A DNA stretch of 64,000 bases from a virus. Its lineage: Duplodnaviria; Heunggongvirae; Uroviricota; Caudoviricetes. Shown here piece after piece: positions 1 to 19,149 of this stretch. The stretch spans positions 18,702 through 82,701 of IMG/VR virus record IMGVR_UViG_3300021599_001517. One strand, 5' to 3'. The translations under genes were made by a program, and so were the position numbers. The notes beneath the pieces were generated by a model. It had not been told where the DNA came from. It ran no database searches and saw nothing but the letters and a program-made list of their open reading frames with translations. The stretch's first letter is position 1. Each line of letters starts with the position of its first letter.

Positions 1-1592
1 TCGTAAAGAAAAATATTAAAGTTGGTCTTTATACTTCGGAACTTCTTGAATGGTATTCAGAAGATGATTGGAATAAGATGAATGATATGTTAGATCATTC
101 TAAAGATGAAGAATATTCCTATGCTGCTATTGAACAACTAATTGAAAAATATCTAGTGCGTAATCGTGCTACAAAAGAAATATACGAAACTCCTCAAGTT
201 CGTTATATGATTGCAGCAGCTACAGTATTTCATAAGGAAGAACCAAATGCTGCCAGAATGCGTTACATAAAGGAATATTATAATGCTGCTAGTGATGGTC
301 TTTTTACTCTTGCTACTCCTGTCCTTGCTGGGCTTGGCACTCCGACGAAACAATTTTCTTCTTGCGTTCTCATTAGGTCTGATGATGACCTGGATAGTAT
401 ATTCGCTAGTGGCGAGATGATGGCCAAGTATGCCAGCAAACGTGCTGGCATTGGCTTAGAGATTGGACGTTTGCGTCCTTTGGGTAGTCCAATTCGCGGT
501 GGCGAGATCATGCACACTGGCATGATCCCTTTCCTTAAGAAGTGGTTTGGTGACCTACGCAGTTGCAGTCAAGGAGGTATTCGTAATGCTAGTGCTACAG
601 TTTTTTATCCTATTTGGCATCATCAGTTTGATGATCTTATCGTCCTTAAGAACAACCAAGGCACAGACGAAACCAGAGTCCGTCATATGGATTATGGGGT
701 TGTGCTTAGTGCTTTCTTCTGGAGAAGATTTAAAAACAGAGAAAACATAACCTTCTTTGATCCTAATGAAGTACCGGATTTATATGAAGCTTTCTACAGC
801 AATACAGAACGCTTTGAAGAATTATATGTTAAATATGAAAAGCAAAAAAGTCTCCGTAAAAAAGTAATGAGTGCTGAAGAGGTATTCAAAGGAGGCATTT
901 TAAAAGAGCGCACAGACACAGGACGTATCTATCTTGTATTCATTGACAATGTAATGAATCAAGGTCCGTTTGATACAGAGTATCATACCATTTATCAGAG
1001 TAACCTTTGCTGTGAGATCCTATTACCTACGAAACCATTTAAGAGACTCGACGATCCGGAGGGCAGAATTGCTCTTTGCACCCTTGGGTCCATTAACTGG
1101 GGTGCCTTCCGCAATCCTGAAGACATGCGTCGTGCTTGCCGTATATTGCAGCGTAGTCTTTGCAATATATTGGATTATCAAGATTTTCTAAGTATACAAT
1201 CTGAGTTAAGCAATCAAGAAATACAACCGTTGGGTATTGGTGTTACTAATCTAGCCTACTGGCATGCTAAACGTAGTTTGAAATACGGTGAGAAGGATGC
1301 ACTACAAGAAGTTAAGTCGTGGATGGAACACCAAGCGTTCTATCTTACAGAAGCAACAGTGGATCTTGCTAAGGAAAGAGGCAAATGTTTAGACAGTAAC
1401 AAAACTTGGTATGGTAAGGGTGTGTTTCCTTGGGAGCGCAGAGCTCATGGTGCAAACGAGCTAGCAGATTTTACTCCAGAGTTAGATTGGGAACCTTTAC
1501 GTAAGGAGATGAAAGAACATGGTGTACGAAATGCTACTCTTATGGCTATTGCTCCAGTTGAGTCTAGTAGTGTTGTTATTAATAGTATGTAG
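1..1592 (+). CDS. nrdA: Class Ia ribonucleotide reductase large subunit NrdA, 5'-partial (frame open to window start). The body stops at 1592, well before the normal C-terminus.
   Basis: Translation has RNR-alpha hallmarks (SNLCCEILLPT catalytic N/C/E loop, ALCTLGSINW, ...LMAIAPVESSS). The frame is open from nt 3. The expected C-terminal tail lies downstream in a different frame. Confidence 0.85.
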   Translation, partial: VKKNIKVGLYTSELLEWYSEDDWNKMNDMLDHSKDEEYSYAAIEQLIEKYLVRNRATKEIYETPQVRYMIAAATVFHKEEPNAARMRYIKEYYNAASDGLFTLATPVLAGLGTPTKQFSSCVLIRSDDDLDSIFASGEMMAKYASKRAGIGLEIGRLRPLGSPIRGGEIMHTGMIPFLKKWFGDLRSCSQGGIRNASATVFYPIWHHQFDDLIVLKNNQGTDETRVRHMDYGVVLSAFFWRRFKNRENITFFDPNEVPDLYEAFYSNTERFEELYVKYEKQKSLRKKVMSAEEVFKGGILKERTDTGRIYLVFIDNVMNQGPFDTEYHTIYQSNLCCEILLPTKPFKRLDDPEGRIALCTLGSINWGAFRNPEDMRRACRILQRSLCNILDYQDFLSIQSELSNQEIQPLGIGVTNLAYWHAKRSLKYGEKDALQEVKSWMEHQAFYLTEATVDLAKERGKCLDSNKTWYGKGVFPWERRAHGANELADFTPELDWEPLRKEMKEHGVRNATLMAIAPVESSSVVINSM

Positions 1593-1834
1593 ATCAAAGT
1601 ATTAGTACCAATACATTCTACAATCCAGCACATTTTATAGATCGTAAAGTTCCAACTACATTAATTGCTAAAAACTTAATGCAAGCTCACATGTGGGGTT
1701 TAAAAACTTTCTATTATAGTTTGATTAACAAACAAGGTAGTAAAGCACAAGAAGAAAAAGTTCAGGAAGTCGTTAATTATAATGGCTACCATAATGAAGA
1801 ATTAGAAGATGATTGCGAGGCATGTAAACTATGA
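1586..1834 (+). other. NrdA C-terminal tail segment in the -1 frame (YVDQSISTNTFYNP...GLKTFYYS...EDDCEACKL*). It ends with an ATGA overlap into nrdB.
   Basis: The frame starting at 1586 encodes the conserved FIDQSIS block, the radical-transfer Tyr-Tyr pair (KTFYY) and the C-terminal CxxC redox tail of class I R1. A -1 shift relative to 78-1592 is needed to reach it. Confidence 0.55.
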
Positions 1835-2877
1835 GTACGGCACAGTATAATTTAAACACAAAAACAGACTACCTTAATCGCAAAATGTTCCTTGATCCAG
1901 CCGGACCAGTTACTATTCAAAGGTTTGAGGAAGTCAAATATAATAAAATTTCAGACTTTGAAAAAACAGCTAGGGGTTTCTTTTGGGTTCCTGAAGAAAT
2001 TAGTCTAGCTAAAGATGCAAATGATTTTAAGGAAGCCAGCGATGCAGTTAAACATATCTTCACTAGCAACCTGCTTAGGCAAACTGCTCTTGACAGTCTG
2101 CAAGGCCGCGGCCCAAGTCAAATCTTTACTCCGGTCGTAAGCCACAGTCGCAGTTACAGTCACATTATTCGTAACATTTACAATGTGCCCAAGGATGTAT
2201 TCAACACAATCCATGACACTAAAGAAATTGTCGACATGGCTAGTTCAGTAGGTAATTATTATGAATCTTTACATCGTATCAATATGCAAGTTGAACTAGG
2301 TATGGATGTCAAAAAAGAAGATCATATTAAAGCAATCTATCTAGCACTACATGCCAGTTATGCTCTCGAAGCATTCCGCTTTATGGTATCGTTCGCTACA
2401 TCACTAGCAATGGTTGAGAATAAGATCTTTATCGGCAACGGCAACATCATCAGTTTGATTCTACAAGACGAATTGCTACACAAAGGATGGACTGCTTGGT
2501 TAATCAATCAAGTGGTCAAAGAAGATCAAAGATTTGCCCAGGCAGCTCGAGAATGTCAAGAAGAAGTAATTCAAATTTACAAAGATGTTATTGCAGAAGA
2601 AAAAGGGTGGGCTGACTATCTGTTTAAGAAAGGTCCGGTGATTGGATTGAATGCTAACATTCTAAAAGACTTTGTAGACTATACTGCTGTTGGAGCATTA
2701 AAAGATATTGGTATTAAATATTGGGATGTTGCTCCTAAAACTACACCAATTCCTTGGTTCAATAAACATTCAGACACCAGTAAAAAACAAACGGCTCTGC
2801 AAGAAAATGAATCAACTAATTATGTCATTGGTGTAATGAGTGATGCTCTAAATTATGCAGAGCTTCCAGCAATTTAA
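1831..2877 (+). CDS. nrdB: Ribonucleotide reductase class I small subunit NrdB (atypical; see findings)
   Basis: Matches include ...HIFTSNLLRQTALDSLQGR..., HSRSYSHIIRNI (His118/Tyr122 block), FMVSFA...VEN... (Glu204) and LQDELLH (Glu238/His241). The stop/start overlap with nrdA is ATGA. Confidence 0.8.
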   Translation: MSTAQYNLNTKTDYLNRKMFLDPAGPVTIQRFEEVKYNKISDFEKTARGFFWVPEEISLAKDANDFKEASDAVKHIFTSNLLRQTALDSLQGRGPSQIFTPVVSHSRSYSHIIRNIYNVPKDVFNTIHDTKEIVDMASSVGNYYESLHRINMQVELGMDVKKEDHIKAIYLALHASYALEAFRFMVSFATSLAMVENKIFIGNGNIISLILQDELLHKGWTAWLINQVVKEDQRFAQAARECQEEVIQIYKDVIAEEKGWADYLFKKGPVIGLNANILKDFVDYTAVGALKDIGIKYWDVAPKTTPIPWFNKHSDTSKKQTALQENESTNYVIGVMSDALNYAELPAI

Positions 2878-3066
2878 TTAAGTAAAGATATGTATAAAGC
2901 ACAGTTTAAAAGTAAGAGTCCATACGAATCGTGGACTACTCTTGGAACATTTGGAACAGAAGCCCAAGCTATCTCTGCTGCTCTACAAAAAAAACAAAAA
3001 GGTGCTGTTATGGTTAGAGTTGTTGATAAAAACAACAGCATTGTTTATTCAAGTTAAGGAAGAAAG

Positions 3067-3306
3067 ATGAAAGCAGTAGTATGGAGTAAGTATCATTGTC
3101 CATTCTGTGATCAAGCTAAGGCACTGCTCACAGCAAAGGGCATTCAGTTTGAAGAAAAGAAAATTGGCGATGGATTTACCAAAGAAGATTTATTAGAAGC
3201 TGTTCCTAATGCAAGAACAGTTCCACAAATTTTCTTAGATGATAAGTTAATTGGTGGTTTTACAGAATTAAAAGCATATCTAGCAAAGGAACAAAATGTT
3301 AATTGA
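3067..3306 (+). CDS. Glutaredoxin (NrdH/Grx-like redoxin)
   Basis: 79 aa with a CPFC active site, glutaredoxin-like throughout, located next to nrdAB. Confidence 0.8.
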   Translation: MKAVVWSKYHCPFCDQAKALLTAKGIQFEEKKIGDGFTKEDLLEAVPNARTVPQIFLDDKLIGGFTELKAYLAKEQNVN

Positions 3307-3586
3307 TAAAGGCGTAACAGAAGGTGAAGTAGTAACTCTAAAACTATCAACTGGTGAAGAGTTAATAGCAAAATTAATTGAGGATGGTGCCCTCTATTAC
3401 AAATTAAGTAAGCCCATGGTTCTTAGTATGACACAAAAGGGTGTGGGCATGATGCCTTATCTTTTTACAGTTAATCCAGAAAAAGAAATTAAATTGTTTA
3501 AGACCAATGTAGTGGTGTTAGAAGCTACTGACAAAGATTTTGCTACTGCATATACGCAACAAACAACAGGAATAGCTCTAGCATAA
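3296..3586 (+). CDS. Hypothetical protein
   Basis: ORF with an ATG overlapping the glutaredoxin stop (ATGTTAATTGA). No recognisable motif. Confidence 0.35.
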   Translation: MLIDKGVTEGEVVTLKLSTGEELIAKLIEDGALYYKLSKPMVLSMTQKGVGMMPYLFTVNPEKEIKLFKTNVVVLEATDKDFATAYTQQTTGIALA

Positions 3587-3587
3587 T

Positions 3588-4616
3588 ATGGTAAAAGCAA
3601 TACAGAGACTCAAGGATGAAAACACATCCGGTGGTGAGATTGTCGAAACCGATGGCAACACTACTGTTTATGCTAATGATCGTTTAGTATCTGTTAATAC
3701 AAGTTTAGTTGGAGAATTCATAGAAGGCGATATACAAGCCAACGATGTAACCGCTAACGGAAGCAATGCAGTGTTTGTTCGTTTAATTGGAGTCAACTAC
3801 ACAACTAATAAAGACGAAAGTGGTGCTACTAGAATTGGTGGTAGTTCGGACGTTTTTGTTGGAGATGATGTTGATCAAGATATTCCTAGTATTAGAGAAG
3901 TTGTAACTGCCGACGATCTTGACCTCGATCCTGAAGATCCAGGAGCTGGCCGAAGAAGGTACGAAGAGCTAGTAAGAAATGGTACTATTAGCAAACGAGA
4001 ACAAGATGTTGCTTCCCCAAAACCCAGTGGAAAGAAAGATACTGCTCCTAGTAAATTTACCGGGACACCAACAACTGCCTGCGAAGGAATTGAATTAATA
4101 GTTGAACCCCCCGGTCTTCCTCCATTACAGGGATCGGTGTTAGATGCTGTTCAATTGTCACCAAGATTCACTGTTGGAAAACTAACTAGAGCTCCTAATA
4201 TAATTTTTGATCATCCCCTTAAACTTGGTGATTTAAGATTATCATTAGCAGAAACTGTGTGTAATTTAAAATTACTAGCAATCAATGTTTTAGAACCTAT
4301 TTTTTCTAAATACCCAAATGCTTTTATAACAAATACATTTAGACCTGCATCAACAAGTCAAAAAAGTCAACATGTTACAGGACAAGCGGTGGATTTGCAA
4401 TTTAGAAATGTCACTAAAGGTGATTATTATATAATTGCTCAAGATTTAAAAAATTTAGTCCCTTTTGATCAATTTTTATTAGAATATAAAACTACAGGTA
4501 CTAGATTACCGTGGATACATATAAGTTTTAGTAAATCCAACAATAGAAAACAGGTTCTTACTTTGCTTAATGATACAACATATGGTCAAGGACTAATTGA
4601 TTTACAGGCACAATAA
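3588..4616 (+). CDS. Virion-associated protein with a C-terminal peptidase M15 (VanY/LAS-type D,D- or L,D-peptidase) domain
   Basis: The C-terminal region contains SQHVTGQAVDL (SxHxxGxAxD zinc-peptidase motif) and a downstream HIS... segment. The N-terminal part is Gly/Thr/Val-rich, like an injected lysin or structural protein. Confidence 0.55.
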   Translation: MVKAIQRLKDENTSGGEIVETDGNTTVYANDRLVSVNTSLVGEFIEGDIQANDVTANGSNAVFVRLIGVNYTTNKDESGATRIGGSSDVFVGDDVDQDIPSIREVVTADDLDLDPEDPGAGRRRYEELVRNGTISKREQDVASPKPSGKKDTAPSKFTGTPTTACEGIELIVEPPGLPPLQGSVLDAVQLSPRFTVGKLTRAPNIIFDHPLKLGDLRLSLAETVCNLKLLAINVLEPIFSKYPNAFITNTFRPASTSQKSQHVTGQAVDLQFRNVTKGDYYIIAQDLKNLVPFDQFLLEYKTTGTRLPWIHISFSKSNNRKQVLTLLNDTTYGQGLIDLQAQ

Positions 4617-5026
4617 TGAAAAAATTATTTTGGAACATTTTAGGATTTTTAAGTTTGGGTATGGCCTACATAGGTTTGGTAACCCCCGGCATTCCTTACT
4701 CACCATTCATTGTATTTTCTGCATATTGTTTTAGCAAAGGCTCAGAACGTATGCATCGTTGGATCTACAATCATAAGATTTTTGGTCCGTTCTTAACCAA
4801 CTGGACAGAAAAGCGTGTGTTCCCAACTAAACTAAGATATCTCATGTTAGCCATGATGAGTCTAAGTTTAGTGCTGATGTGGACGGGAGGGGTTAAGCCT
4901 ATAGGGATAATCAGCACAGCAATATTCATGCTTTTAGTTGCAGTGTGGGCCTGGAGATATCCAGCAACACCAGAAGAACATGATCAAAGAAAATTAGATA
5001 ATAAGAGGATTGGATGGCTAAAATAA
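4616..5026 (+). CDS. DUF454 / YbaN-family inner membrane protein
   Basis: Matches LGMAYIGLVTPGIPYSPFIVFSAYCFSKGSERMHRW (YbaN signature) and is predicted to have 3-4 TM helices. Confidence 0.6.
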   Translation: MKKLFWNILGFLSLGMAYIGLVTPGIPYSPFIVFSAYCFSKGSERMHRWIYNHKIFGPFLTNWTEKRVFPTKLRYLMLAMMSLSLVLMWTGGVKPIGIISTAIFMLLVAVWAWRYPATPEEHDQRKLDNKRIGWLK

Positions 5027-5271
5027 CATTGAACGAATTAATTGACATTGCTTTTGCTGCCGAGGAAGGGGATCCAATTGAGTGGGGAATCTTTACCAAC
5101 GGTAAAGAACAAGCAATGACAATGATCGGAACTAGTATCTTAGAACAGTTCGACAAAGACATTATTACAGATGAAGATAAACTAATACTGTTAGCAACAA
5201 TTACTAAATTGGTAACAGAAAATATGGTATTAAACACAAAGCTATTGACATTGTCTAAAAAAGATAGTTAA
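5014..5271 (+). CDS. Hypothetical acidic protein
   Basis: ORF only. Confidence 0.3.
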   Translation: MAKITLNELIDIAFAAEEGDPIEWGIFTNGKEQAMTMIGTSILEQFDKDIITDEDKLILLATITKLVTENMVLNTKLLTLSKKDS

Positions 5272-5475
5272 ATAACATATGAACGATGATTTAACAAGAT
5301 TCTTAGTTGGTTTTCTTATAGTCGCGGCTGTGCTTTTTATTATACTACTATGATTTTTAATCTTTTAATTTTAGCATTTGCTGTATACTGTTTAGTAGTA
5401 TGGATCCATGCGTTAGTAACATACGATTGGACTAAATTTGAAGAGGATTCAAAAGACGACGATTTTTTGAAACCT

Positions 5476-5552
5476 TATGAATAAAGAATTGTTGTAATTC
5501 CTTCAAAGTGAAGGCATTCTGGACGCGGGTTCGACTCCCGCCAGGTCCACCA
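5476..5552 (+). ncRNA. ssrA: tmRNA acceptor piece of a permuted ssrA: T-arm plus 3' acceptor strand plus CCA, gGACGCGGGUUCGACUCCCGCCAGGUCC-A-CCA (5' boundary approximate)
   Basis: Positions 5521-5552 are almost identical to the E. coli tmRNA 3' end (GGACGCGGGUUCAACUCCCGCCAGCUCCACCA). The encoded CCA ends at 5552. Confidence 0.65.
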
Positions 5553-5673
5553 ATAGAGATGATTATGAACACTACACAAACTATAAAATTAGCAGGATTT
5601 TTTCTAGGAACGTATATTTTATACAGACTAGGATTAGAAGTTTGGTGTATAGTTTATGGACTACTTTATTGAT

Positions 5674-5892
5674 GGGCCTGACATGGTTTCGACAGGGTGA
5701 GATAATAGAGACGGCAACACGGTAGGCGATGACCGTAAATCAAGCAAATCTATAAATGCAAACGATAATGCATTTGACTTTACAGCAATGAGCTTCACCG
5801 GTAACACTGTTGCCAATGACAGCAAATTTGCTCTAGCAGCCTAAGAAACTGCAAGTCCGGGGTAGCTATACCTTGTAACCCAAAATAGTGAA
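5674..5892 (+). ncRNA. ssrA: tmRNA coding piece of a permuted ssrA: 5' acceptor strand GGGCCUG, a UGGUUUCGACAGGG D-analog, and a tag reading frame ending ...ANDSKFALAA-UAA (3' boundary approximate, at the terminator)
   Basis: GGGCCUGACAUGGUUUCGACAGGG matches the universal tmRNA 5' end GGGGCUGAUUCUGGAUUCGACGGG and pairs with the upstream CAGGUCC. It lies downstream of the CCA end, which makes the gene permuted. Confidence 0.65.
5758..5844 (+). other. tmRNA tag-peptide reading frame (ANDNAFDFTAMSFTGNTVANDSKFALAA-stop; the true resume codon is uncertain, minimal tag ANDSKFALAA from 5812)
   Basis: The GCA at 5758 lies 84 nt from the 5' end of the coding piece. The frame ends ...KFALAA-TAA (compare E. 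coli ANDENYALAA). Confidence 0.5.
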
Positions 5893-5916
5893 AAGCCCCC
5901 TTGGGGGCTTTTCTTT
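5891..5916. terminator. Bidirectional rho-independent terminator (GCCCCC-TT-GGGGGC plus T-run) between the tmRNA and the convergent lipoprotein gene
   Basis: Perfect 6-bp GC stem with a flanking A-run and T-run. Confidence 0.7.
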
Positions 5917-6379
5917 ATTGCGGATAGACTAAAACGTTTTCTTCGGTTCCGATAATAGGATCAACTATAAGTTTCCCAAATCCTAGCATGGTCTGATTAG
6001 TGTTAATAGCAATGTCTTTGTTATTGTTGCTGTTGACTATGGCAAGATCAGTGCTTTTCCCAATACCATAAATTTGAGTAAGGCTGGGCACAATTACACT
6101 AGCCCACCGCAGAGCTGTGTCGCCTGTGCTAGTAGGTTGCTGTAGCTTAGGACTGTTGTTTTCCGGTGCGCCTTGCTGTAATGCAATTACAGCGGCTACA
6201 CGAGCCGTGGTGTCGCCACTATTGGCAATAGCTTCTAATGCCTTGTATCGTGCAATTTCTGCTTCTGCTCTTGCTAGGGCAATATTTTCTTGGGTTTGGG
6301 CGTATTGTTGGTAGTTGTTAGATGCACAACCAGTTAGTGTTATGACGCAGATGGCGCCGGCGAGAATAGTTTTTCTCAT
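5915..6379 (-). CDS. Lipoprotein (signal peptide plus LTGC lipobox)
   Basis: MRKTILAGAICVITLTGCAS... No other motif. Confidence 0.55.
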   Translation of the reverse strand: MRKTILAGAICVITLTGCASNNYQQYAQTQENIALARAEAEIARYKALEAIANSGDTTARVAAVIALQQGAPENNSPKLQQPTSTGDTALRWASVIVPSLTQIYGIGKSTDLAIVNSNNNKDIAINTNQTMLGFGKLIVDPIIGTEENVLVYPQ

Positions 6380-6500
6380 AATAGTTTCCTTATAAATGAT
6401 TTTATTTGGAAACTACTTAGATCAACTTACTCCCAATATAATATTGGCATAGTTAGAATATTAAACCTAATATAGCAAAGGCTACTTCGGTAACTTTTTT

Positions 6501-6529
6501 TTGAGTTTTTATTCTAAAGACTATATAAT
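6501..6529 (+). promoter_or_regulatory. Sigma70-like promoter TTGAGT-N17-TATAAT driving the 6537 gene (very short leader)
   Basis: -35 at 6501-6506, 17-nt spacer, -10 TATAAT at 6524-6529, then ATG at 6537. Confidence 0.45.
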
Positions 6530-6536
6530 AACTCTT

Positions 6537-7391
6537 ATGAAACGTACCTCTATTAAAGAACTTTTTGGCGGTGAAGTTGCCTTCACCAAGTTCATCTCTC
6601 AAGATATTCAAACTGCCAAACGTTTGATTAATGCTATTTCTGCAGACTATGACGATGATTATACAGTCAAACCAGAGGATCATACGATTGATTCAAAACG
6701 TGTTGATCTTGTAATCCGCGATTCAGAAAACGTAGTTGCGTATGTAATTGAAAGCCAAGATTGTACTGGCTGGCTTGATTCAATTCATGCCAGCAAGATT
6801 CTTTATTATATGTACGAAAAAGAATGTTCAGAAGGTATTTTACTTTGCGAAGATGCAGATGAGCATATCAAAGGATTTGTTCGTTGGTGCAATGAAAATA
6901 CACCTGTACAGATTTGGTTGATGAGTGCTGTATGTTTTGAAGTTAATAATTCAAAGTATGTAGACTTCATTCCTTTGATTCGGCCAGGTATGCTTAAAGA
7001 TAAAAAGATTCGTCGAGTATCATCAAACGGATCTACATCAGCGTCTGTAGACTTTTCAGAAATGTTACAAGAAAAAGCAGACCAACATCCTGGTTTATTC
7101 ACGAATGTAAGATCAAGATATCTCAGTACAAATGGTGTAGGAGGATCTGGGATCAACGTAGGTATTAGTCCACGTAAGAGTGGTTACTTTATGGTTACCA
7201 TTTGGCATGCAGGCAAATGGAATAATGATAAATTTAGAAATAGTTTTAATGAATTTGTTAAAAACGAAACTAATCTAGAACCTAAGTGGCAAGATAGACA
7301 GAGTTATGTAAATGTAGATTCTTGGGACGAAGGTATAGAAGTTTATAAAAAATTTATAGATGGTTTAAAGTCTAAACAGATTGTCGGATAA
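6537..7391 (+). CDS. Hypothetical protein (possible PD-(D/E)xK-like fold: ...RVDLVIRD...VIESQD...)
   Basis: ORF from the first ATG after the promoter. The track ORF begins at TTG 6501, which is the -35 box. Confidence 0.45.
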   Translation: MKRTSIKELFGGEVAFTKFISQDIQTAKRLINAISADYDDDYTVKPEDHTIDSKRVDLVIRDSENVVAYVIESQDCTGWLDSIHASKILYYMYEKECSEGILLCEDADEHIKGFVRWCNENTPVQIWLMSAVCFEVNNSKYVDFIPLIRPGMLKDKKIRRVSSNGSTSASVDFSEMLQEKADQHPGLFTNVRSRYLSTNGVGGSGINVGISPRKSGYFMVTIWHAGKWNNDKFRNSFNEFVKNETNLEPKWQDRQSYVNVDSWDEGIEVYKKFIDGLKSKQIVG

Positions 7392-7435
7392 TTTGATATT
7401 GAAAAATCCTATTATCGTCATTGAAAAATATTAGA

Positions 7436-7453
7436 CAAAATCTATAGATTTTG
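7436..7453. promoter_or_regulatory. Perfect 18-bp palindrome CAAAATCTATAGATTTTG (operator-like) upstream of ahpC, followed by a second inverted repeat ATGTATA-N2-TATACAT at 7475-7490
   Basis: Read directly from the sequence. It sits in the ahpC upstream region, 85 nt before the RBS. Confidence 0.4.
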
Positions 7454-7537
7454 TTTGATTTATAGGATAACTAAATGTATAGTTATACATAGAACTTGTT
7501 GTTCTTTACGTTTTCAACACACACTTAAGGAGATAAA

Positions 7538-8071
7538 ATGAAAACAGTTGGTGATAAAATTGAAGCATTTGCCGTAACCGGCGTTAATCCTGGTAAAGAT
7601 GATTTCTTTACCATTACTGAAAAGTCATACGAAGGTAAGTGGAAAGTAATTGTTTACTATCCAAAAGACTTTACATTTGTATGCCCAACAGAAATCGTAG
7701 CATACGATAAATTGAATAGTGATTTTGCCGATCGTGACGCAGTATTACTAACTGGTTCAACAGATAACGAATTCTGTAAACTGGCATGGCAAGCAGCCCA
7801 TGAAGATCTTAAAAAAATCAAACATGTTCAGTTTGCTGATACACAGCGTAACGAATTGAGCCTTATTGATCAGCTTGGCGTATTCTATGCTCCAGCAGGT
7901 GCTGCACTTCGTGCAACATTCATTGTTGATCCAGAGAATGTTATCCAACACATTACTGTCAACAACTTGAATGTTGGTCGCTCACCAGAAGAAACACTTC
8001 GTGTATTAGACGCATTGCAAACAGGTGAACTTTGTGCTTGCAACCGTACAGTTGGCGGAGAGACACTGTAA
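7538..8071 (+). CDS. ahpC: Peroxiredoxin, AhpC/TSA family
   Basis: Contains FTFVCPTEI (peroxidatic Cys). Overall AhpC-like, with a C-terminal CAC. Confidence 0.85.
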   Translation: MKTVGDKIEAFAVTGVNPGKDDFFTITEKSYEGKWKVIVYYPKDFTFVCPTEIVAYDKLNSDFADRDAVLLTGSTDNEFCKLAWQAAHEDLKKIKHVQFADTQRNELSLIDQLGVFYAPAGAALRATFIVDPENVIQHITVNNLNVGRSPEETLRVLDALQTGELCACNRTVGGETL

Positions 8072-8586
8072 TGACTGCTTGGGTAGATCAAATTAAAGAA
8101 ACTATTCCGGACTATGCTAAAGACACTCGTCTTAACATTGATGCAGTAGTTAAGCGTTCTACTCTACCCCAAGAAGAAGCAGAAGCTGTTGCTATCGCAG
8201 CGGCTTTTGCCACAGGTAATAGTAAACTGTGGACTTGGATGCAGAGTCAGGCAATAGATAAGAAAGAAGCTGAAGCAGCAGTTACCGCAGCTAGTCTAAT
8301 GGCCATGAACAATGTATGGTACCCATTCGTTGAAATGGCTGAGGATCCTAATCTAACAGGATTACCGGCACAGTTGCGTATGAACGCAATTACTACACAT
8401 GGCGGCACTACTAAAGCAAGATTTGAAGCATATTCTTTATCTGCTAGTATTGTTGGCAAGTGTCATTTTTGTGTGAAAGCACATTATGAAACACTCAAGC
8501 AAGAAGGATATACAGTAGAACAATTACGTGATATTGGGCGCATAGCGGCAGTTATCACCAGTGTATCCAGAGTACTAAATAGTTAA
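8071..8586 (+). CDS. ahpD: Alkylhydroperoxidase AhpD-family protein (carboxymuconolactone decarboxylase fold)
   Basis: KCHFCVKAH matches the CxxCxxxH AhpD catalytic motif. The start is taken at the ATG in the TAATG overlap with the ahpC stop (the track ORF starts earlier, at 8032). Confidence 0.65.
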   Translation: MTAWVDQIKETIPDYAKDTRLNIDAVVKRSTLPQEEAEAVAIAAAFATGNSKLWTWMQSQAIDKKEAEAAVTAASLMAMNNVWYPFVEMAEDPNLTGLPAQLRMNAITTHGGTTKARFEAYSLSASIVGKCHFCVKAHYETLKQEGYTVEQLRDIGRIAAVITSVSRVLNS

Positions 8587-8626
8587 TCGCCGTAACAGAA
8601 CTGTAATCTTAGGTCTCTTAAATAAG

Positions 8627-8659
8627 AAGGTACAACATAGTGTTGTACCTTTCTTTTTA
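8627..8659 (+). terminator. Rho-independent terminator (AAGGTACAACA-TAG-TGTTGTACCTT plus T-run) after ahpD
   Basis: 11-bp perfect stem followed by TTCTTTTTATT. Confidence 0.65.
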
Positions 8660-8682
8660 TTCACTCACACAAGGAGATTACA

Positions 8683-9708
8683 GTGAAAAAAATCATACTG
8701 ACACTACTGGCGGCATTGACCGTTTCAGCACATGCAGCGGATCTAACAGGAGCAGGGGCAACATTTCCTTATCCTATCTATTCAAAATGGGCCGAAGCAT
8801 ATAAAGCAGCAACAGGCATCGGACTCAACTATCAATCAATTGGTTCAGGCGGCGGCATCCGTCAAATCAAAGCTAAGATTGTAGATTTTGGCGCCAGTGA
8901 CATGCCACTAAAACAAGACGAATTAGACAAAGACGGTCTAATGCAATTCCCTGCAATCATTGGCGGAGTTGTGCCGATTGTAAACATTGATGGTATTGGT
9001 GCAGGACAACTTAAACTTACCTCAGACATTATTGCTGACATCTATATGGGTAAGATCGTCAAGTGGGATCATCCCAGCATCACAGCAATCAATCCAGGAT
9101 TAAAATTACCTAATGCAAATATCTCTGTGGTTCACCGCAGTGATGGTTCAGGTACAACCTTTATATGGACTAACTGGTTAAGCAAGACTAATAAAGAATG
9201 GGCAGATAAAGTCAAAGACGGCACCGCAGTCAAATGGCCAATGGGTGTAGGTGGTAAGGGCAATGAAGGTGTAAGTGCTGTGGTCCAACAACTAAAAAAT
9301 AGTATTGGTTATGTAGAATATGCCTATGCTAAACGCAACAAGATTCCACACGCACAAGTCAAAAATCGTGATGGCAACTTTGTACAGCCTAGCGATGATA
9401 CATTCAAGGCAGCGGCAGCAGGTGCAGACTGGGCAAATGCTCCAGGGTTCTATCTATTGCTAACAGACCAAAAAGGCAAGGACGCTTGGCCTATTACAGG
9501 TGCCAGTTTCATTCTCATGCATAAGCAACAAGAGGATGCACTAACAGGTCGTGCAGTTCTTAAGTTCTTTGATTGGAGTTACAAGAACGGCGGGCAGATG
9601 GCTACAGATTTAGAATATGTACATCTTCCACAATCTGTTATTACATTAGTACAGAATCATTGGAAGACTCAGTTAAAAGATAAGGATAGCAACGCTATTT
9701 GGAAGTAA
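8683..9708 (+). CDS. pstS: Phosphate ABC transporter periplasmic phosphate-binding protein PstS (GTG start; RBS AAGGAG)
   Basis: Signal peptide, then a PstS-like sequence throughout (…GAGATFPYP…SDGSGTTFIWTNWL…). Confidence 0.9.
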   Translation: MKKIILTLLAALTVSAHAADLTGAGATFPYPIYSKWAEAYKAATGIGLNYQSIGSGGGIRQIKAKIVDFGASDMPLKQDELDKDGLMQFPAIIGGVVPIVNIDGIGAGQLKLTSDIIADIYMGKIVKWDHPSITAINPGLKLPNANISVVHRSDGSGTTFIWTNWLSKTNKEWADKVKDGTAVKWPMGVGGKGNEGVSAVVQQLKNSIGYVEYAYAKRNKIPHAQVKNRDGNFVQPSDDTFKAAAAGADWANAPGFYLLLTDQKGKDAWPITGASFILMHKQQEDALTGRAVLKFFDWSYKNGGQMATDLEYVHLPQSVITLVQNHWKTQLKDKDSNAIWK

Positions 9709-9718
9709 GCAGTACCCA

Positions 9719-9738
9719 CCGCCAGTGATCACTGGCGG
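9719..9738 (+). terminator. GC-rich perfect palindrome CCGCCAGTGATCACTGGCGG (hairpin; partial terminator/attenuator) between pstS and the porin gene
   Basis: 20-bp perfect palindrome followed by an AT-rich stretch. Confidence 0.45.
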
Positions 9739-9760
9739 ATCTATTTTATAAGGATTTAAA

Positions 9761-11173
9761 ATGAAAACATTACTTAAGGTAATGCTGGCGTCATCTGTGA
9801 CAGCATTTATACCTGCACCTGCACACGCAGACGAATACAAAGACACACTTGAAATTCTAAAAAATAAAAATATTCTTACACAGAAAGAATATGATATTAA
9901 ACTTAAAGAATATGAAGAAAAAGAAGAAAACAAAAAGTTTATTGAACAGAGAATTGACAGAGATGTCAGCGACTCAGTCAAATACAGACAGGCCAGAGTT
10001 AATGACGGATCAGTCACAGAAAACGGAATTGGACTCAAAAGCAAAGATGGCGGCAACACCGTCCAGCTTACAGGTCGACTACATATGGACTATCGTCAGT
10101 ACTCCCCGGATTACGGTACAGGTCAAACCACAGATTCGTACCAGAATACTGCTGAAGCACGACGAGCCAGATTTGGAGTAAGAGGTCAGTTTGCCAAAGA
10201 TTTCAAATATCAATTATTAGCAAACTTTGGTGCCAGTGATGGTTTTAGTTCAACATCGAGTACAGCAGATGAAATGTGGGTCAACTATGCTGCAAATCCA
10301 GAAGCACAGTTTCAATTTGGTTTATTCAAGATGCCATTCAGTCTTGAGCAGTTAACAAGTTCAAACAATCTTGACTTTATGGAACGCAGTTTAATTGGTC
10401 AAAATGATACAGAGTTTATACCTGCTAAAGAAACTGGATTTATGTTACATGGTATTCCTAAGCCTGGCTTAACATACGCTCTAGCATTAAGCAGAGGTAA
10501 GAGCAATAAGAGTGCCGAGTTTGATGGCTTTGACTACATTAGTCGTGTAACTACAAACATCGCTGAACTAACCGGAAGCAAAGCATATACAGCACATTTA
10601 GGTGCCGCTTATAGTACAGGTGAAATCAAAAGCGGTGTAGCTCCAGCAAGTGGTAGAACAGAATCACGTATGCAATCAGGATGGTTTACAGGATCTGCTC
10701 TTAGCGGTGCAACTACAAGAACACGTCAAGGCCTCGAAGCTGCATTTGCTTATAATGCATTTAAGGTGCAAGGCGAACATTTTCAATTTAATTATGATCC
10801 TGCAACAGGTAACGATCAGAAAATAAATGGATACTATGTGCAAGCTGTGTATAATCTAACAGGTGAGTCACACTCATATAAAGATGGCGCATTTGGTTGG
10901 ATCAAACCTGCTAATCCTTTGGACAAAGGTGGTCGTGGTGCATGGCAAGTTGGTGTACGTATGAGTGAGTTTGATGCCAGTGACATTACTGTAGCTACCG
11001 GCAAATCAAATCGTGCTACTGCTATGACATATGGTGTTACCTGGTTCTGCACAGACAACCTACGTTTTATGTTAAATTATGTAGACACAAAATTTGATAG
11101 TCTAGTAGGCAGTTCAGGTAGTCGTGTAAACGGCGAACGTGCTGTTATGTTTAGAAGCCAACTAAGTTTTTAA
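9761..11173 (+). CDS. Phosphate-selective porin O/P family outer-membrane protein
   Basis: 470 aa with a signal peptide (AHA-DE cleavage site), an N-terminal charged coiled segment, then an aromatic-rich beta-barrel-like sequence ending ...FRSQLSF, the C-terminal Phe typical of OMPs. The overall pattern matches OprO/OprP-type porins. Confidence 0.6.
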   Translation: MKTLLKVMLASSVTAFIPAPAHADEYKDTLEILKNKNILTQKEYDIKLKEYEEKEENKKFIEQRIDRDVSDSVKYRQARVNDGSVTENGIGLKSKDGGNTVQLTGRLHMDYRQYSPDYGTGQTTDSYQNTAEARRARFGVRGQFAKDFKYQLLANFGASDGFSSTSSTADEMWVNYAANPEAQFQFGLFKMPFSLEQLTSSNNLDFMERSLIGQNDTEFIPAKETGFMLHGIPKPGLTYALALSRGKSNKSAEFDGFDYISRVTTNIAELTGSKAYTAHLGAAYSTGEIKSGVAPASGRTESRMQSGWFTGSALSGATTRTRQGLEAAFAYNAFKVQGEHFQFNYDPATGNDQKINGYYVQAVYNLTGESHSYKDGAFGWIKPANPLDKGGRGAWQVGVRMSEFDASDITVATGKSNRATAMTYGVTWFCTDNLRFMLNYVDTKFDSLVGSSGSRVNGERAVMFRSQLSF

Positions 11174-11195
11174 TAAATAACTTGGCATTTATAAT

Positions 11196-11220
11196 GCCCC
11201 ATCTAATGGGGCTTTTTTTT
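11196..11220 (+). terminator. Rho-independent terminator GCCCCATCTAATGGGGC plus T8
   Basis: 5-bp GC stem plus TTTTTTTT. Confidence 0.7.
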
Positions 11221-11231
11221 GGACACACTAA

Positions 11232-11411
11232 ATGGAAACACACAAACGAACACTAACACGAGCAATTACATGGAGAATTACCGCAACTCTTATAACTGCG
11301 GCATGGACAGGATTGGCAGGAGCTATCGTTATTAATATTTTTATGACTGTTGCCCACTACATACATGAACGATTTTGGCTAAAAATTGAGTGGGGTAAAC
11401 AGATCAATTAG
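11232..11411 (+). CDS. Small membrane protein (DUF2061-like: RAITWRITATLITAAWTGLAGAIV)
   Basis: 59-aa ORF below the track cutoff, with 2 TM helices. Confidence 0.3.
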   Translation: METHKRTLTRAITWRITATLITAAWTGLAGAIVINIFMTVAHYIHERFWLKIEWGKQIN

Positions 11412-11519
11412 CCTATTTTAATGAATTTCACTATGGTTTTCTGGTAGTTTTTATCATATAATGCAGATACATACTGTTGCAATAGTATGTTTTTATTGTT
11501 GTTAAAAAGGAGAAGCATT

Positions 11520-11591
11520 ATGTGGACCAAGCCAGAAGCAACCGAGATGCGTTATGGTTTTGAGATCACTATGTACATCGCTAATCGCTAA
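11520..11591 (+). CDS. pqqA: PqqA-like peptide (23 aa: [23 protein letters not shown]), a putative RiPP precursor
   Basis: Near-identical in pattern to proteobacterial PqqA (MW.KPA..D.R.G.EVT.Y...R) with the E-x-x-x-Y cross-link pair. AAGGAG RBS 7 nt upstream. Its own terminator follows. Confidence 0.6.
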
Positions 11592-11607
11592 TACATAGTA
11601 TCAAAAA

Positions 11608-11632
11608 TCAAAACCCGCTCCGGCGGGTTTTT
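11608..11632 (+). terminator. Rho-independent terminator AACCCGC-TCCG-GCGGGTT plus T-run
   Basis: Read directly from the sequence. Confidence 0.7.
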
Positions 11633-11700
11633 TCTTGACTTTTATTGCAAATATGTTATACTATATGCTCAGTAACTAATTTTGGAGATATACTTTGAGT

Positions 11701-12066
11701 ATGCATTTGGAAGGTCCGTGGCTCAGTACCACAGGCAAGAAAAAAAGCAAACGTAAATTTCGTAATGCTGAAGAAGCACGTAAGTCTCGCGAGTTACAAG
11801 ATTCTTGGCAGTCGTTGTTAGAAAAGTATGATGTGCCAAAAACTAGTAAACAGAAAAAATTTGAACCATTAAAGGCCAAATCAGCACCTATAAGAGAGAC
11901 TCCAAAGATTCCTAGTCTTCCTTTTACTGCTGGACCTTGTACTAAACCAGAGCAGAAAGTTTATACTGGTACAAAAGTTAAAGGTATTGGCACTATGCAT
12001 AAAAGTAATGCTGTTCCAATTTTTTCAGACGAAGAAGCTGTAGAAATTGCCAAAATGAGGCGATAA
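11701..12066 (+). CDS. Hypothetical Lys/Arg-rich protein
   Basis: ORF from the first ATG (the track starts at TTG 11695). Confidence 0.4.
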   Translation: MHLEGPWLSTTGKKKSKRKFRNAEEARKSRELQDSWQSLLEKYDVPKTSKQKKFEPLKAKSAPIRETPKIPSLPFTAGPCTKPEQKVYTGTKVKGIGTMHKSNAVPIFSDEEAVEIAKMRR

Positions 12067-12366
12067 TACCACATTTTAGTACCAAAATGAGTGATATATG
12101 CTATATAAAAATACGTTTCGCAAAGAAACTAAGATAGTAGAACCAAAGTATGTCAAAAGCTGAAACGGTTCCGCGAGTCTTGGCCAATTGGAAACCCGTG
12201 AGATTCGGGCGGTCAAGGCTCCAAAGGCACACAAGTTATGAGATTGTGCGTCCAATGGAGACAACTACACGAACCCAGGGTTCTTCATTTAGAGCCTCGT
12301 GAAGTTTACTCCCTTAATGTAATGTAATATGAAGTTCGTATTACACCAAATGAAAGGAGATACAAA

Positions 12367-12906
12367 ATGGAAAAAGTAATAAAACCTATAATTTTGATTA
12401 TTGGGTTAGTACTAACAGTAATGTCTATTAAAGCTGTTACAGCCGTAAAACTAAATCAATTAAAACAGACAGCAGGAGTTTCTTATTCTGATGTTGTCAC
12501 AATTCGTGAACGTGAGCGTCAGTTAGATTGCTTGGCTAGAAATATCTATCACGAAGCGGCCAGCGAACCATTTGAGGGTAAAGTTGCGGTAGCACAGGTT
12601 ACAATGAACCGTGCATCCAGCGGCAAATTCCCAAATGATATTTGCGGTGTTATATACCAAAAGAATGTTTTCTATGAAAAAGTAGTTTGCCAATTTAGTT
12701 GGTACTGCGAAGGTCACGGTAAAAGCAAACCAATTCGTAGCAAAGAAATGTACGACGAATCATATCGTGTTGCTAAAAAAGTATTGTTAGAAAACTTTAG
12801 ACTTGACGTTATGAAAGAAGCCATGTATTATCATGCTGATTACGTGAACCCTCAATGGGGTAGAGAAAAGATTGGCAAAATTGGTCGTCATATATTTTAC
12901 AAATAA
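12367..12906 (+). CDS. Cell wall hydrolase, SleB/CwlJ (Hydrolase_2) family, with an N-terminal membrane anchor
   Basis: ...NIYHEAASEPFEGKVAVAQVTMNRA...QFSWYCEGH... is typical of SleB-family lytic enzymes. RBS AAAGGAG. Confidence 0.7.
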   Translation: MEKVIKPIILIIGLVLTVMSIKAVTAVKLNQLKQTAGVSYSDVVTIRERERQLDCLARNIYHEAASEPFEGKVAVAQVTMNRASSGKFPNDICGVIYQKNVFYEKVVCQFSWYCEGHGKSKPIRSKEMYDESYRVAKKVLLENFRLDVMKEAMYYHADYVNPQWGREKIGKIGRHIFYK

Positions 12907-12915
12907 GGATTAAGA

Positions 12916-13227
12916 ATGGAAAAGTTTGAGTTGTTGTTTAATAAATGCAGAGAATTTTTATCTACCAAATTAAGTCACATCAGTAGCGAAGCTTTGGGTT
13001 GGTTAGCTACTATTGTGATTCATGCATCAACCTTGCCAACGTTTCTTGCAGTTATGATGGGATTAACTGACAAGCTACCTGGCGTTGATATCATTCTAAT
13101 GGTTTGGGGTGGACTAACCTTGTTGTTCTTTAGAGCCGTGTTAATCAAAGACATGCTCAATGTAGCAACAATTGGATTTGGTTTTATTCTTCAAGCTGTA
13201 TTCATGTCACTGATTTTCTTTAAGTAA
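12916..13227 (+). CDS. Small integral membrane protein
   Basis: 3 predicted TM helices. Confidence 0.4.
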   Translation: MEKFELLFNKCREFLSTKLSHISSEALGWLATIVIHASTLPTFLAVMMGLTDKLPGVDIILMVWGGLTLLFFRAVLIKDMLNVATIGFGFILQAVFMSLIFFK

Positions 13228-13308
13228 TTTTGGTAATCACCGTAGTTGACTTTGGTCGACTGCGGTGTTATATTAGTAACTGTCTTAACACACACAGAAA
13301 GAGGCATT

Positions 13309-14454: not shown

Positions 14455-14478
14455 ATATAACATTAAGGAGATATTTTT

Positions 14479-17379: not shown

Positions 17380-17410
17380 CATCTGAAAGAAAGTAGTTTA
17401 TAATAGTACT

Positions 17411-19068: not shown

Positions 19069-19076
19069 ATAAAAAC

Positions 19077-19102
19077 GCAATTAGCACCCAATGGGCTAAT
19101 TG
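19077..19102 (+). promoter_or_regulatory. Hairpin GCAATTAGC-ACCCAATGG-GCTAATTG upstream of dnaK. Its loop motif is shared with the hsp20 and porin hairpins.
   Basis: 8-bp stem. The loop contains CCAATGGG. Confidence 0.35.
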
Positions 19103-19149
19103 TAACGAGCTCAGTGCTCATTAAATTCTTACTTTTTAAGGAGAAAAAT

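Follow-up and report, generated by a model that had tools for sequence, protein, structure and literature searches.

The 64,000-nucleotide (nt) stretch of viral DNA analyzed here (hereafter the window; positions 18,702 to 82,701 of IMG/VR record IMGVR_UViG_3300021599_001517, Caudoviricetes) carries a circularly permuted transfer-messenger RNA (tmRNA) gene, in which the sequence for the 3' end of the tRNA-like domain precedes the sequence for its 5' end. Taken together, the evidence makes it very probable that this is a complete, functional-looking two-piece ssrA residing in a low-GC, T4-like myophage, that it falls within a phage-only branch of the beta-type tmRNA family, and that the 121-nt intervening segment (IVS) between its two pieces is also a conserved small gene. 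Two-piece tmRNAs of phages have already been published and the tmRNA of the window is therefore not itself new; what appear to be new are the gene within the IVS, the generality of such nested open reading frames (ORFs) among phage permuted tmRNAs, and a conserved extension of the encoded peptide tag.

The complete gene occupies 5486-5914 on the plus strand, as delimited by two Rfam models together with ARAGORN, which reports a permuted tmRNA (label 'tmRNA*') at 5460-5935. Its acceptor piece, the 3' half of the tRNA-like domain (5486-5552, +; 5' boundary approximate), is defined by Rfam alignments, co-folding and covariation, and consists of a P2 strand (5489-5495), an internal hairpin (5500-5514), a D-arm-analog strand (5515-5521) and the tRNA-like 3' end GGACGCGGGTTCGACTCCCGCCAGGTCCACCA, read from the sequence at 5521-5552 (+). 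Within this last element lie a T-arm at 5525-5541 (T-stem GCGGG/CCCGC, 5525-5529/5537-5541; T-loop UUCGACU, 5530-5536), the acceptor 3' strand CAGGUCC (5542-5548), discriminator A5549 and an encoded CCA (5550-5552). The IVS (5553-5673, +) extends from CCA5552 to G5674, where the coding piece (5674-5914, +) begins, the latter being supported by ARAGORN, Rfam, co-folding and covariation. The 5' end of the coding piece, GGGCCTGACATGGTTTCGACAGGG / GGGCCUGACAUGGUUUCGACAGGG (5674-5697, +; also read from the sequence), provides the acceptor 5' strand GGGCCUG (5674-5680), an SmpB/D-loop-like motif, UGGUUUCGAC (5685-5694), and most of the second D-arm-analog strand (5693-5699), and is followed by a P2 strand (5711-5717), a hairpin (5719-5736), the tag reading frame and a 3' terminal hairpin. 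The tag reading frame encodes 28 amino acids (aa) from GCA5758 to the UAA at 5842-5844 (5758-5844, +), as placed by ARAGORN and by the resume context recognized by Rfam. The terminal hairpin of the RF01850 model coincides with a bidirectional intrinsic terminator, GAAAAGCCCCC-TTGG-GGGGCTTTTC plus a T-run (5890-5913), whose 10-bp GC-rich hairpin serves both the tmRNA and the convergent gene at 5915-6379 (-).

The defining features of a permuted tmRNA are all present. CCA 5550-5552 stands ahead of G1 at 5674 on the same strand, 121 nt away; the acceptor stem GGGCCUG/CAGGUCC contains seven base pairs with a single G-U, which is the alanine identity pair G3.U70; and the tRNA-like domain is completed by a T-arm loop of the GGUUCGAnUCC type and the discriminator A. 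The first-pass annotation of this DNA, made from the letters alone, had proposed a complete two-piece phage tmRNA, and ARAGORN, RF04321, RF01850, co-folding and covariation agree with that proposal. The 3' end at 5521-5552, the 5' end at 5674-5697 and the tag running to 5844 were all read where it had put them, its spacing of about 120 nt is exactly 121 nt (5553-5673), and its pairing of CAGGUCC with GGGCCUG through one G-U corresponds to the seven-pair stem with G3.U70. Likewise, the in-frame tag that it saw ending in ANDSKFALAA-UAA is recovered by ARAGORN and Rfam as the end of a 28-aa tag starting at 5758, and its description of two intact pieces followed by a terminator is borne out by full-length covariance matches and the hairpin at 5890-5913.

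Covariance models place the gene within the tmRNA clan with little ambiguity. RF04321 (tmRNA_permuted) is matched at 152.6 bits (gathering score 47, E = 2.6e-30) over model positions 1-213 of 213, and RF01850 (beta_tmRNA) at 135.9 bits (gathering score 84, E = 2.4e-41) over positions 1-331 of 331; RF01850 is the match retained for clan CL00001, lower-scoring clan matches being suppressed. The match of the tmRNA elements is far beyond chance, and the molecule is a beta-type tmRNA rather than one of the alpha or cyanobacterial type. While the models suggested in the first-pass annotation did return a full-length permuted, beta-type tmRNA, its description of the architecture as alpha-proteobacterial/cyanobacterial in style does not hold, the best model of the clan being the betaproteobacterial RF01850. 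Folding the two pieces together, as it had also suggested, gave the canonical helices: the minimum-energy co-fold of 5486-5552 with 5674-5760 contains the inter-piece acceptor stem, the T-arm, the D-arm analog CAUUCUG/CAGGGUG and P2 UUGUUGU/ACGGCAA. In an alignment of 19 sequences (11 phage and 8 bacterial homologs, spacer removed), pairing within the acceptor, T-arm and D-analog helices reaches 99-100% and includes compensatory changes, and all 19 retain G3.U70 (19/19). The covariation score of 0.222 was exceeded in none of 500 shuffles (0.106), and slid controls reached at most 0.142. Among the 123 phage loci listed, pair 6:67 is U-A in 77, A-U in 37, G-C in 7 and mismatched in 2, and CCA is encoded in 120.

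Sequence searches indicate that the gene is a phage gene with its own history. The exact 24-nt 5' core was found in 11 viral contigs and 10 metagenome contigs, the latter containing only repeats of IVS versions already met, and in none of 185,579 bacterial species genomes; a looser core added at least 119 more viral contigs. The full gene is present in no fewer than 130 viral contigs, ARAGORN calling a permuted tmRNA in 127 of the 130 usable viral loci listed, and the tmRNA region is identical in IMG/VR contig L011. Bacterial comparison was made with 16 permuted genes among the matches listed (Azonexus, Dechloromonas, Thauera, Accumulibacter and other Rhodocyclaceae), the looser pattern having also matched one-piece tmRNAs of Firmicutes, Fibrobacter and Cloacimonadota. 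These bacterial genes share the acceptor stem GGGGGUG/CACCUCC, 10-aa tags (ANDERFALAA or ANDEQFAIAA) and spacers of about 3-43 nt, none of which is found in the window, with its GGGCCUG/CAGGUCC stem, 28-aa tag and 121-nt IVS. Identity across the tRNA-like part is 69-75% to tmRNAs of Rhodocyclales and up to 97% to other viral tmRNAs. By these comparisons, the window tmRNA belongs to an apparently phage-only branch of the beta-type family, marked by the acceptor strand GGGCC(U/A/G)G instead of GGGGGUG and probably forming a phage-specific sister group of the bacterial beta-type set. One contig (L141, OGVS01002799.1) joins the phage-type 5' core GGGCCUG to the bacterial-type CACCUCC; the two cannot pair, ARAGORN finds no gene there, and the locus may have arisen by recombination or chimeric assembly or may be a pseudogene.

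A point missed by the first-pass annotation is that the spacer of some 120 nt is itself a gene. An ORF of 37 codons, MIMNTTQTIKLAGFFLGTYILYRLGLEVWCIVYGLLY (5559-5672, +), fills the IVS to its UGA at 5670-5672, which ends one nt before G1 (G5674), such that the last four bases of the segment, UGAU, comprise the stop codon and the U(-1) of the presumed RNase P site. An alternative start at AUG 5565, better spaced from the purine motif AGAGA/AAGGA, would give 35 aa. An ORF of this length is expected by chance with P = 0.005-0.008 in dinucleotide-preserving shuffles, and the reverse strand has none. Relatives recovered with degenerate DNA patterns back-translated from the C-terminus provide nine distinct versions, each with an IVS of exactly 121 nt; frame 0 is open in all nine, while stops interrupt frame 1 in nine and frame 2 in five. 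Since the search pattern forced conservation of the remaining codons, the codon test was limited to codons 1-26, in which synonymous changes account for a fraction of 0.46 of the differing codons in frame 0 versus 0.09 and 0.10 in the shifted frames, and differences are distributed 287:159:386 by codon position. The window ORF would have stayed unproven without the seven versions beyond that of L252: compared with L252 alone, differences fall 13:10:9 by codon position, with 3 synonymous and 16 non-synonymous codons, simulations keep the frame open by chance in 13% of cases, and another frame is open as well. Although the peptide matches no Pfam or PHROG family, the nine versions bear the signature of translated sequence, suggesting that the IVS holds a real protein gene for a conserved hydrophobic, membrane-type peptide of 35-37 aa. 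The peptide family accompanies tmRNAs with quite different tags, and in L414 a homolog is a free-standing gene directly upstream of the acceptor piece, the IVS of that locus containing another small ORF.

The same segment is highly structured. Positions 5542-5680 are predicted to fold into one long irregular hairpin that extends the acceptor stem, at -41.3 kcal/mol as compared with -22.6 +/- 3.3 for shuffles (z = -5.7), which is the geometry expected of a permuted-gene precursor. In this predicted fold the 3' end of the ORF is the pairing partner of the Shine-Dalgarno-like purines and both start codons, so that translation would have to compete with folding or run co-transcriptionally, before the 3' strand is made.

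Nested ORFs are not peculiar to the window. In a set of 95 distinct IVSs from beta-type phage tmRNAs, 29-268 nt long with a median of about 86, the forward strand has an ORF at shuffle P<=0.05 in 27 and at P<=0.01 in 12; the reverse strand yields 6 and 1, close to the chance expectation of about 5 and about 1. The layout is stereotyped: CCA is followed by UAAGGA(A/U)... and, 10-14 nt past CCA, by AUG, and in 14 of the 27 ORF-bearing IVSs the stop is the UGA of a conserved UGAU just before G1. UGAU or UAAU closes the IVS in about 86 of the 95 versions, with U(-1) before G1 conserved. Two nested products are recognizable, a thioredoxin in the 268-nt IVS of L251 (PF00085, 75.4 bits, cut-off 23.5) and a PGDYG-domain protein in that of L207 (27.8 bits, cut-off 27; phrog_419, E = 1e-11), and Rfam still scores both loci as full-length permuted tmRNAs. 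Differences within six other IVS peptide families are distributed 65:38:137 by codon position, with 103 synonymous and 77 non-synonymous codons. Alpha-type phage tmRNAs behave similarly, ORFs at P<=0.05 occurring in 26 of 101 distinct IVSs on the forward strand versus 4 on the reverse, and we estimate from these sequence counts that a nested ORF is probably present in about one in four distinct IVSs, in phage tmRNAs of the beta and alpha types alike. By contrast, spacers of the 16 bacterial genes sampled are too short for any ORF. In the literature consulted, we found no published report of protein-coding spacers in permuted tmRNA genes; the tmRNA database paper mentions one long IVS, with a repetitive element (PMC11915505).

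In some loci the nested frame does not stop within the IVS. It runs past G1 in 9 of the 27 beta-type ORF-bearing IVSs and also in the alpha-type tmRNA of the OM43 phage Melnitz, whose 142-nt IVS contains an unannotated ORF, MFKWLSKTRLVVITRDYFRERNRKADAKIPKYLSG..., behind a GGAGAA motif; this ORF has no stop codon before the coding-piece G1 and is a member of a conserved family, MFKWL..ITRDYF.ERNRKADAKIPKYLSG, that is represented in other viral contigs. RNase P cleavage of such a transcript would leave a non-stop mRNA. Loci in which the frame continues past the presumed RNase P site are L010, L170, L189/L198/L200, L218, L221/L267, L280 and L286, and one read-through family displays a CxxC...HxC pattern (MKYTALCPSCFNRFSWVPSKGLTKHKCFSD).

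The tag of the window RNA is also unusual. Its 28 residues, ANDNAFDFTAMSFTGNTVANDSKFALAA, comprise the extension ANDNAFDFTAMSFTGNTV followed by ANDSKFALAA; the resume context AUAAAU-GCA lies at 5752-5760, ahead of the first GCA and not the internal one, and the 28 codons end with ALAA-UAA. Of 127 phage tags listed, 70 are 10 aa long and 37 are at least 21 aa. The family to which the window tag belongs recurs as AN(A)D(T/A)FDF(S/T)AMSFTGNTV followed by the canonical ten-residue tag. In 14 distinct coding sequences of this family, variable columns within the first 18 codons are distributed 5:4:12 by codon position, and 213 of the differing codons are synonymous versus 194 non-synonymous, that is, about half. 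L142, the closest relative at the neighboring gene (75% protein identity), encodes a homologous long tag, ANDDAFDFAAMSFNGNTVGGRVALAA, separated from that of the window by synonymous changes and an in-frame 6-nt indel, while its IVS is different and lacks an ORF; tag and IVS are therefore independent modules. Judged by its codon pattern, the long tag is a conserved and presumably translated 18-residue extension preceding the canonical tag. Such extensions suggest a target beyond the host ClpXP degron pathway, possibly a phage adaptor or phage ClpP, the stretch to consider with an adaptor in view being TFDFSAMSFTGNTV.

Several observations bear on the identity of the phage. Megablast of window positions 1-20000 against 50,697 phage records gave no match, indicating no close cultured relative. 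The 342-aa protein at 3588-4616 matches the T4-type baseplate hub/tail lysozyme of Caulobacter phage Cr30, the Melnitz OM43 phages, pelagiphages and Pseudomonas phage pf16, and occurs in 40 public-assembly blocks, whose contigs range up to the 0.2-1 Mb class; GC content across the window is 29-40%; and the flanking genes encode ribonucleotide reductase (RNR), glutaredoxin, DUF454, AhpC, an AhpD-like protein, PstS, a phosphate porin and DnaK. Baseplate-hub relatives, base composition, spread through public assemblies and gene content together point to a widespread, low-GC, T4-like myophage, which we presume, from the JGI sample series, to be of freshwater origin; JGI samples containing it include 3300042691, 3300032093 and 3300005527. 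The tmRNA terminates a rightward string of genes (RNR, glutaredoxin, the gp5-type baseplate hub, DUF454 and small ORFs), the last of which is a 44-aa ORF with a hydrophobic N-terminus, MIFNLLILAFAVYCLVVWIHALVTYDWTKFEEDSKDDDFLKPYE (5350-5484, +), taken from the ORF list and supported by conservation of its C-terminus: in L142 its last 14 codons are kept, with synonymous differences only. Its stop codon lies 5 nt ahead of the first tmRNA helix, implying co-transcription with the tmRNA. In other loci (L007, L252, L411) the tmRNA is found a few kb from arrays of about 19-21 tRNA genes; ARAGORN found no tRNA gene in the window.

By analogy with characterized systems, the gene most likely specifies a working ribosome-rescue and tagging RNA that would use host SmpB, alanyl-tRNA synthetase (AlaRS) and RNase P. 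A single precursor would be transcribed through the upstream small ORF, and would be an mRNA as well as the source of the two RNA pieces; host RNase P would cleave on the 5' side of G5674, and the acceptor piece would be trimmed at its 3' end to CCA5552. The resulting acceptor piece of about 65 nt and coding piece of about 240 nt would be held together by the 7-bp acceptor stem, the D-arm analog and P2. Charged by host AlaRS via G3.U70 and accompanied by host SmpB and EF-Tu, the tmRNA would enter stalled ribosomes, translation would resume at GCA5758, and the nascent chain would receive ANDNAFDFTAMSFTGNTVANDSKFALAA, whose ...ALAA end is a classical ClpXP degron. Given this degron and a ClpP encoded by the phage itself (described below), the gene is proposed to enhance ribosome rescue in infected cells and to help clear or recycle truncated proteins. 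The data themselves show the anatomy of the gene, its family membership, the covariation, the coding constraint on the tag extension and the nested ORF, and how general both are among phage tmRNAs; we infer that the upstream ORF and the tmRNA share a transcript, where this is processed, that the RNA is charged and that the nested ORF is translated in vivo.

A number of points weigh against this interpretation. All of the functional steps rest on analogy with the tmRNAs of Caulobacter and E. coli. The co-fold energy is not significantly better than that of mononucleotide shuffles (z = -1.3), and for this reason the two-piece structure is backed by covariation and not by energy. No convincing promoter was found within the window directly upstream of the acceptor piece. 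The best sigma-70-like match of the region, at 5678-5706 (CTGACA-17-GATAAT with TG, 10/12), lies in the tRNA-like domain of the coding piece and is probably coincidental, as transcription from that site would leave out the acceptor strand. A crude tblastn search of the 64-kb window with an E. coli query detected no SmpB, a weak negative, so that function would depend on a host SmpB that accepts this RNA; some huge phages do encode SmpB (PMC7162821). As for the nested gene, its start codon and purine motif are buried in the predicted IVS hairpin, which could prevent translation, and the conserved ends of the ORFs could reflect RNA structure and not a peptide. The IVS of L142 lacks an ORF, and the peptide is thus dispensable for tmRNA function. 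The 27 ORF-bearing IVSs of the census represent an estimated 19 or so families; related versions are not fully independent, and the enrichment counts accordingly overstate the number of independent events.

Two alternative explanations concern the IVS. The ORF may be untranslated, with conservation imposed only by RNA structure in the precursor hairpin, and this we judge unlikely. In its favor are the strong structure of the segment with its paired start region, the missing codon signature and 13% chance of an open frame when the window is compared with L252 alone, and the lack of a Pfam or PHROG match. Against it stand a synonymous fraction of 0.46 versus 0.09-0.10 across nine versions from which the pattern-fixed codons were excluded, the freedom of frame 0 alone from stops, recognizable thioredoxin and PGDYG proteins in other IVSs, and an ORF enrichment confined to the forward strand. 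Less probable again is the notion that each half is transcribed as a unit of its own and that an ordinary small gene lies between them, the nesting being devoid of mechanistic meaning. Consistent with that notion are a weak sigma-70-like match inside the IVS (5589-5618, 9/12), the position of the same peptide family outside the IVS and directly upstream of the acceptor piece in L414, the free swapping of IVS content among close relatives, and the small ORFs that are commonly found between genes of phage tRNA clusters. The tight spacing, with ORFs starting 10-14 nt after CCA and stopping 1 nt before G1 in 14 of 27 cases, argues against it, as does the pairing of the IVS ends, which prolongs the acceptor stem into one hairpin (z = -5.7) in what is a single-transcript geometry; moreover, bacterial permuted genes are transcribed as one precursor, as far as the work of Keiler et al. 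(2000) is related in PMC9004378. Even if the halves were transcribed separately, the tmRNA would still be functional.

The remaining alternatives concern the tmRNA as a whole. It could be a decoy or inhibitor of host trans-translation, acting for example by SmpB titration, as proposed for the molecule of mycobacteriophage DS6A that comprises only a tRNA-like domain; that molecule, or a similar one, inhibits tmRNA in E. coli (PMC4131195, PMC11915505), and the crude search of the window found no phage SmpB. We consider a decoy very improbable, for the window gene, unlike that of DS6A, has a complete tag frame with resume context and an ...ALAA stop, and its tag and extension are under coding constraint, which is unexpected of a pure decoy. 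Least credible of all is a functionless remnant of host ssrA, whether an attP-type copy of an integration site or host DNA captured by imprecise excision. It is true that tmRNA 3' ends are common integration sites, that many temperate phages hold 40-45-nt fragments of the ssrA 3' end, and that such fragments make up most blastn matches to the acceptor piece (prophage-type records of Salmonella, Klebsiella and Escherichia). An exact match to a host ssrA was the result that the first-pass annotation had said would refute its reading, but the 24-nt core occurs in 11 viral contigs and in 0 of 185,579 bacterial species genomes. The two halves are intact and cover the whole of two covariance models, the gene recurs in at least 130 viral contigs and has evolved in compensatory fashion within phages, the genome is T4-like, a lytic type, and no integrase-like match was found in the 64-kb window (tblastn with an E. 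coli tyrosine recombinase query, a weak negative); the remnant reading was rejected on these grounds.

Beyond the interpretation favored here, of a functional tmRNA gene with a small gene in its IVS, it is conceivable, if doubtful, that the spacer of phage permuted tmRNAs is an expression slot and the tmRNA precursor a bifunctional transcript. RNase P cleavage at G1 and 3' trimming at CCA would then free two RNA halves together with a hairpin-closed mini-mRNA whose stop would be the UGA one nt before the RNase P site. Because the Shine-Dalgarno motif and start are paired with the 3' end of the ORF, ribosome loading would compete with the precursor helix, coupling translation of the nested gene to maturation of the tmRNA. 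Were this so, output of the tmRNA or of the peptide would be tied to the availability of free ribosomes, and IVS ORFs that have no stop would yield a non-stop mRNA whose product would be tagged by the tmRNA of the same transcript.

Elsewhere in the window, genes for translation and protein turnover include those for ribosomal protein S21 (17140-17379; PF01165, 70 bits), IF-1 (38757-38975; PF01176, 75 bits) and, directly upstream of IF-1, ClpP (38197-38754; PF00574, 104 bits). The first-pass annotation had joined the tmRNA with S21 and IF-1 in a phage translation module; both of these genes are real, yet they lie 11 kb and 33 kb from the tmRNA and are dispersed, and the combination of tmRNA, S21 and IF-1 in large phages is already published (PMC7162821). 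That a phage with its own ClpP also has a tmRNA tag terminating in the ClpXP degron ...ALAA points to a possible functional connection. Directly after S21 (window 17140-17992 for the pair) is encoded an Rv2179c-like 3'-5' exoribonuclease (PF16473, 134 bits), which could be a candidate for RNA 3'-end trimming. Other genes include a full-length DnaK/Hsp70 (19114-21063; phrog_22485, 886 bits), whose phage relatives include metagenomic huge phages of 480-735 kb, and a set of host-like auxiliary genes at 7538-11173 encoding AhpC peroxiredoxin, an AhpD/CMD-family protein, PstS and a phosphate-selective porin O/P, the last implying a Gram-negative host. Three large radical-SAM proteins, one with a B12-binding domain, are encoded at 40551-43710 and 48677-50470 (-). 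They lie in a block of about 40-64 kb in which the coding strand flips, GC falls to 29-35% and GC skew changes sign; the large ORFs tested in this block gave no PHROG match.

The window tmRNA is one more member of a documented class, and illustrates that large aquatic phages carry a rescue RNA of their own beside S21, IF-1 and ClpP. The broader implication of the IVS data is that a split RNA gene can apparently house a protein gene between its halves, and that this is frequent in phages, in two independent tmRNA lineages. Standard annotation misses such nested genes, the region either receiving the label 'tmRNA', as happened in Melnitz, or staying blank; in public gene calls for the phage of the window (L282, L283), nothing is placed between an 85-aa ORF and the convergent 154-aa gene. 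As a result, phage proteins of small size, a thioredoxin among them, escape notice. The nested arrangement also offers a testable case of coupling between RNA processing and translation.

Comparison with known systems places these findings in context. Buchholz et al. (2022) described a two-piece tmRNA in the OM43 myophage Melnitz, counted 53 two-piece tmRNAs in 18,146 isolate phage genomes (50 from marine or aquatic samples), and noted that pelagimyophages and cyanophages also encode two-piece tmRNAs (PMC9004378). A tmRNA database paper of 2025 built RF04321 and listed 79 phage tmRNAs (PMC11915505), and Al-Shayeb et al. (2020) reported tmRNA, SmpB, S21 and IF-1 in huge phages (PMC7162821). Melnitz is similar to the window in several respects: each is a lytic, T4-like aquatic myophage that has a complete permuted ssrA and S21, the tmRNA closes a string of small ORFs, the baseplate-hub proteins are homologous, and the IVS (142 nt in Melnitz) contains an ORF from a conserved peptide family. 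The two differ in that the Melnitz tmRNA is of the alpha type (RF01849) and that of the window of the beta type (RF01850), in tag length (14 aa versus 28 aa), and in the glutamine riboswitch RF01739 (52.8 bits) that follows the Melnitz tag stop (L286 15985-16447, equivalent to MZ577097.1 45984-46446), whereas the 64-kb window has no riboswitch at the Rfam gathering score. The idea that this riboswitch lies inside the Melnitz IVS and controls its nested ORF was rejected in view of its position after the tag stop codon.

Closer in type are two permuted tmRNAs that are unannotated in their GenBank records. Xanthomonas phage XacN1 (L284, AP018399.1, ~37201-37620) and Pseudomonas phage PA_L9 (L285, PP869205.1, ~80300-80720) each carry a complete beta-type gene (RF01850, 107.8 and 101 bits; tags ANANTFDYALAA and ANDTSFDVRLAA, respectively). 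Like the window, both combine a beta-type tmRNA with a long IVS, of about 112-114 nt; their acceptor strands are GGGCGUG and GGGGCUG and their tags 12 aa long, and their IVSs, unlike that of the window, are structured but without an ORF. Permuted tmRNA has been reported only in Alphaproteobacteria, one betaproteobacterial lineage and Cyanobacteria (PMC9004378, PMC11915505), and the gammaproteobacterial hosts of these two phages, being outside those lineages, are expected to use standard tmRNA. Similarly, Melnitz has an alpha-type tmRNA although its host is on another branch (PMC9004378). The suggestion of the first-pass annotation that the gene limits the host to lineages with two-piece tmRNA is thus not supported, in view of XacN1, PA_L9 and Melnitz; the tmRNA type of a phage is no guide to host lineage, a caution that matters for host prediction from such genes.

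Bacterial RF01850 genes of the Rhodocyclales share with the window the covariance model, the helices, the AUAAAU-GCN-AAC-GAU context and the ANDxxFALAA tag core. They differ by a double compensatory change in the acceptor stem (GGGCCUG/CAGGUCC in the window versus GGGGGUG/CACCUCC), by spacers, in the sampled genes, of about 3-43 nt without a gene as opposed to a 121-nt IVS with one, and by 10-aa rather than 28-aa tags; CCA is fully encoded in the window. The two-piece tmRNA of Caulobacter crescentus was reportedly characterized experimentally by Keiler, Shapiro and Williams in 2000. It has the same order of acceptor piece, IVS and coding piece, and one precursor gives rise to two base-paired RNAs, as would, by analogy, that of the window; the Caulobacter RNA, however, is alpha-type and bacterial, with a short non-coding IVS, whereas the phage gene is known from its sequence.

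A final parallel is provided by intron-form tmRNA genes, which contain a group I intron with an ORF for a LAGLIDADG homing endonuclease (PMC11915505). There, as in the window, a protein ORF lies inside a segment that is removed from the precursor. The intron, however, is a self-splicing mobile element situated in the T-loop, and its ORF provides for its own mobility, while the segment described here is the spacer of a permuted gene, presumably cut out by tRNA-processing enzymes. The ORFs of phage IVSs, in contrast to the intron ORF, represent diverse cargo that includes small membrane peptides, a thioredoxin and a PGDYG protein.

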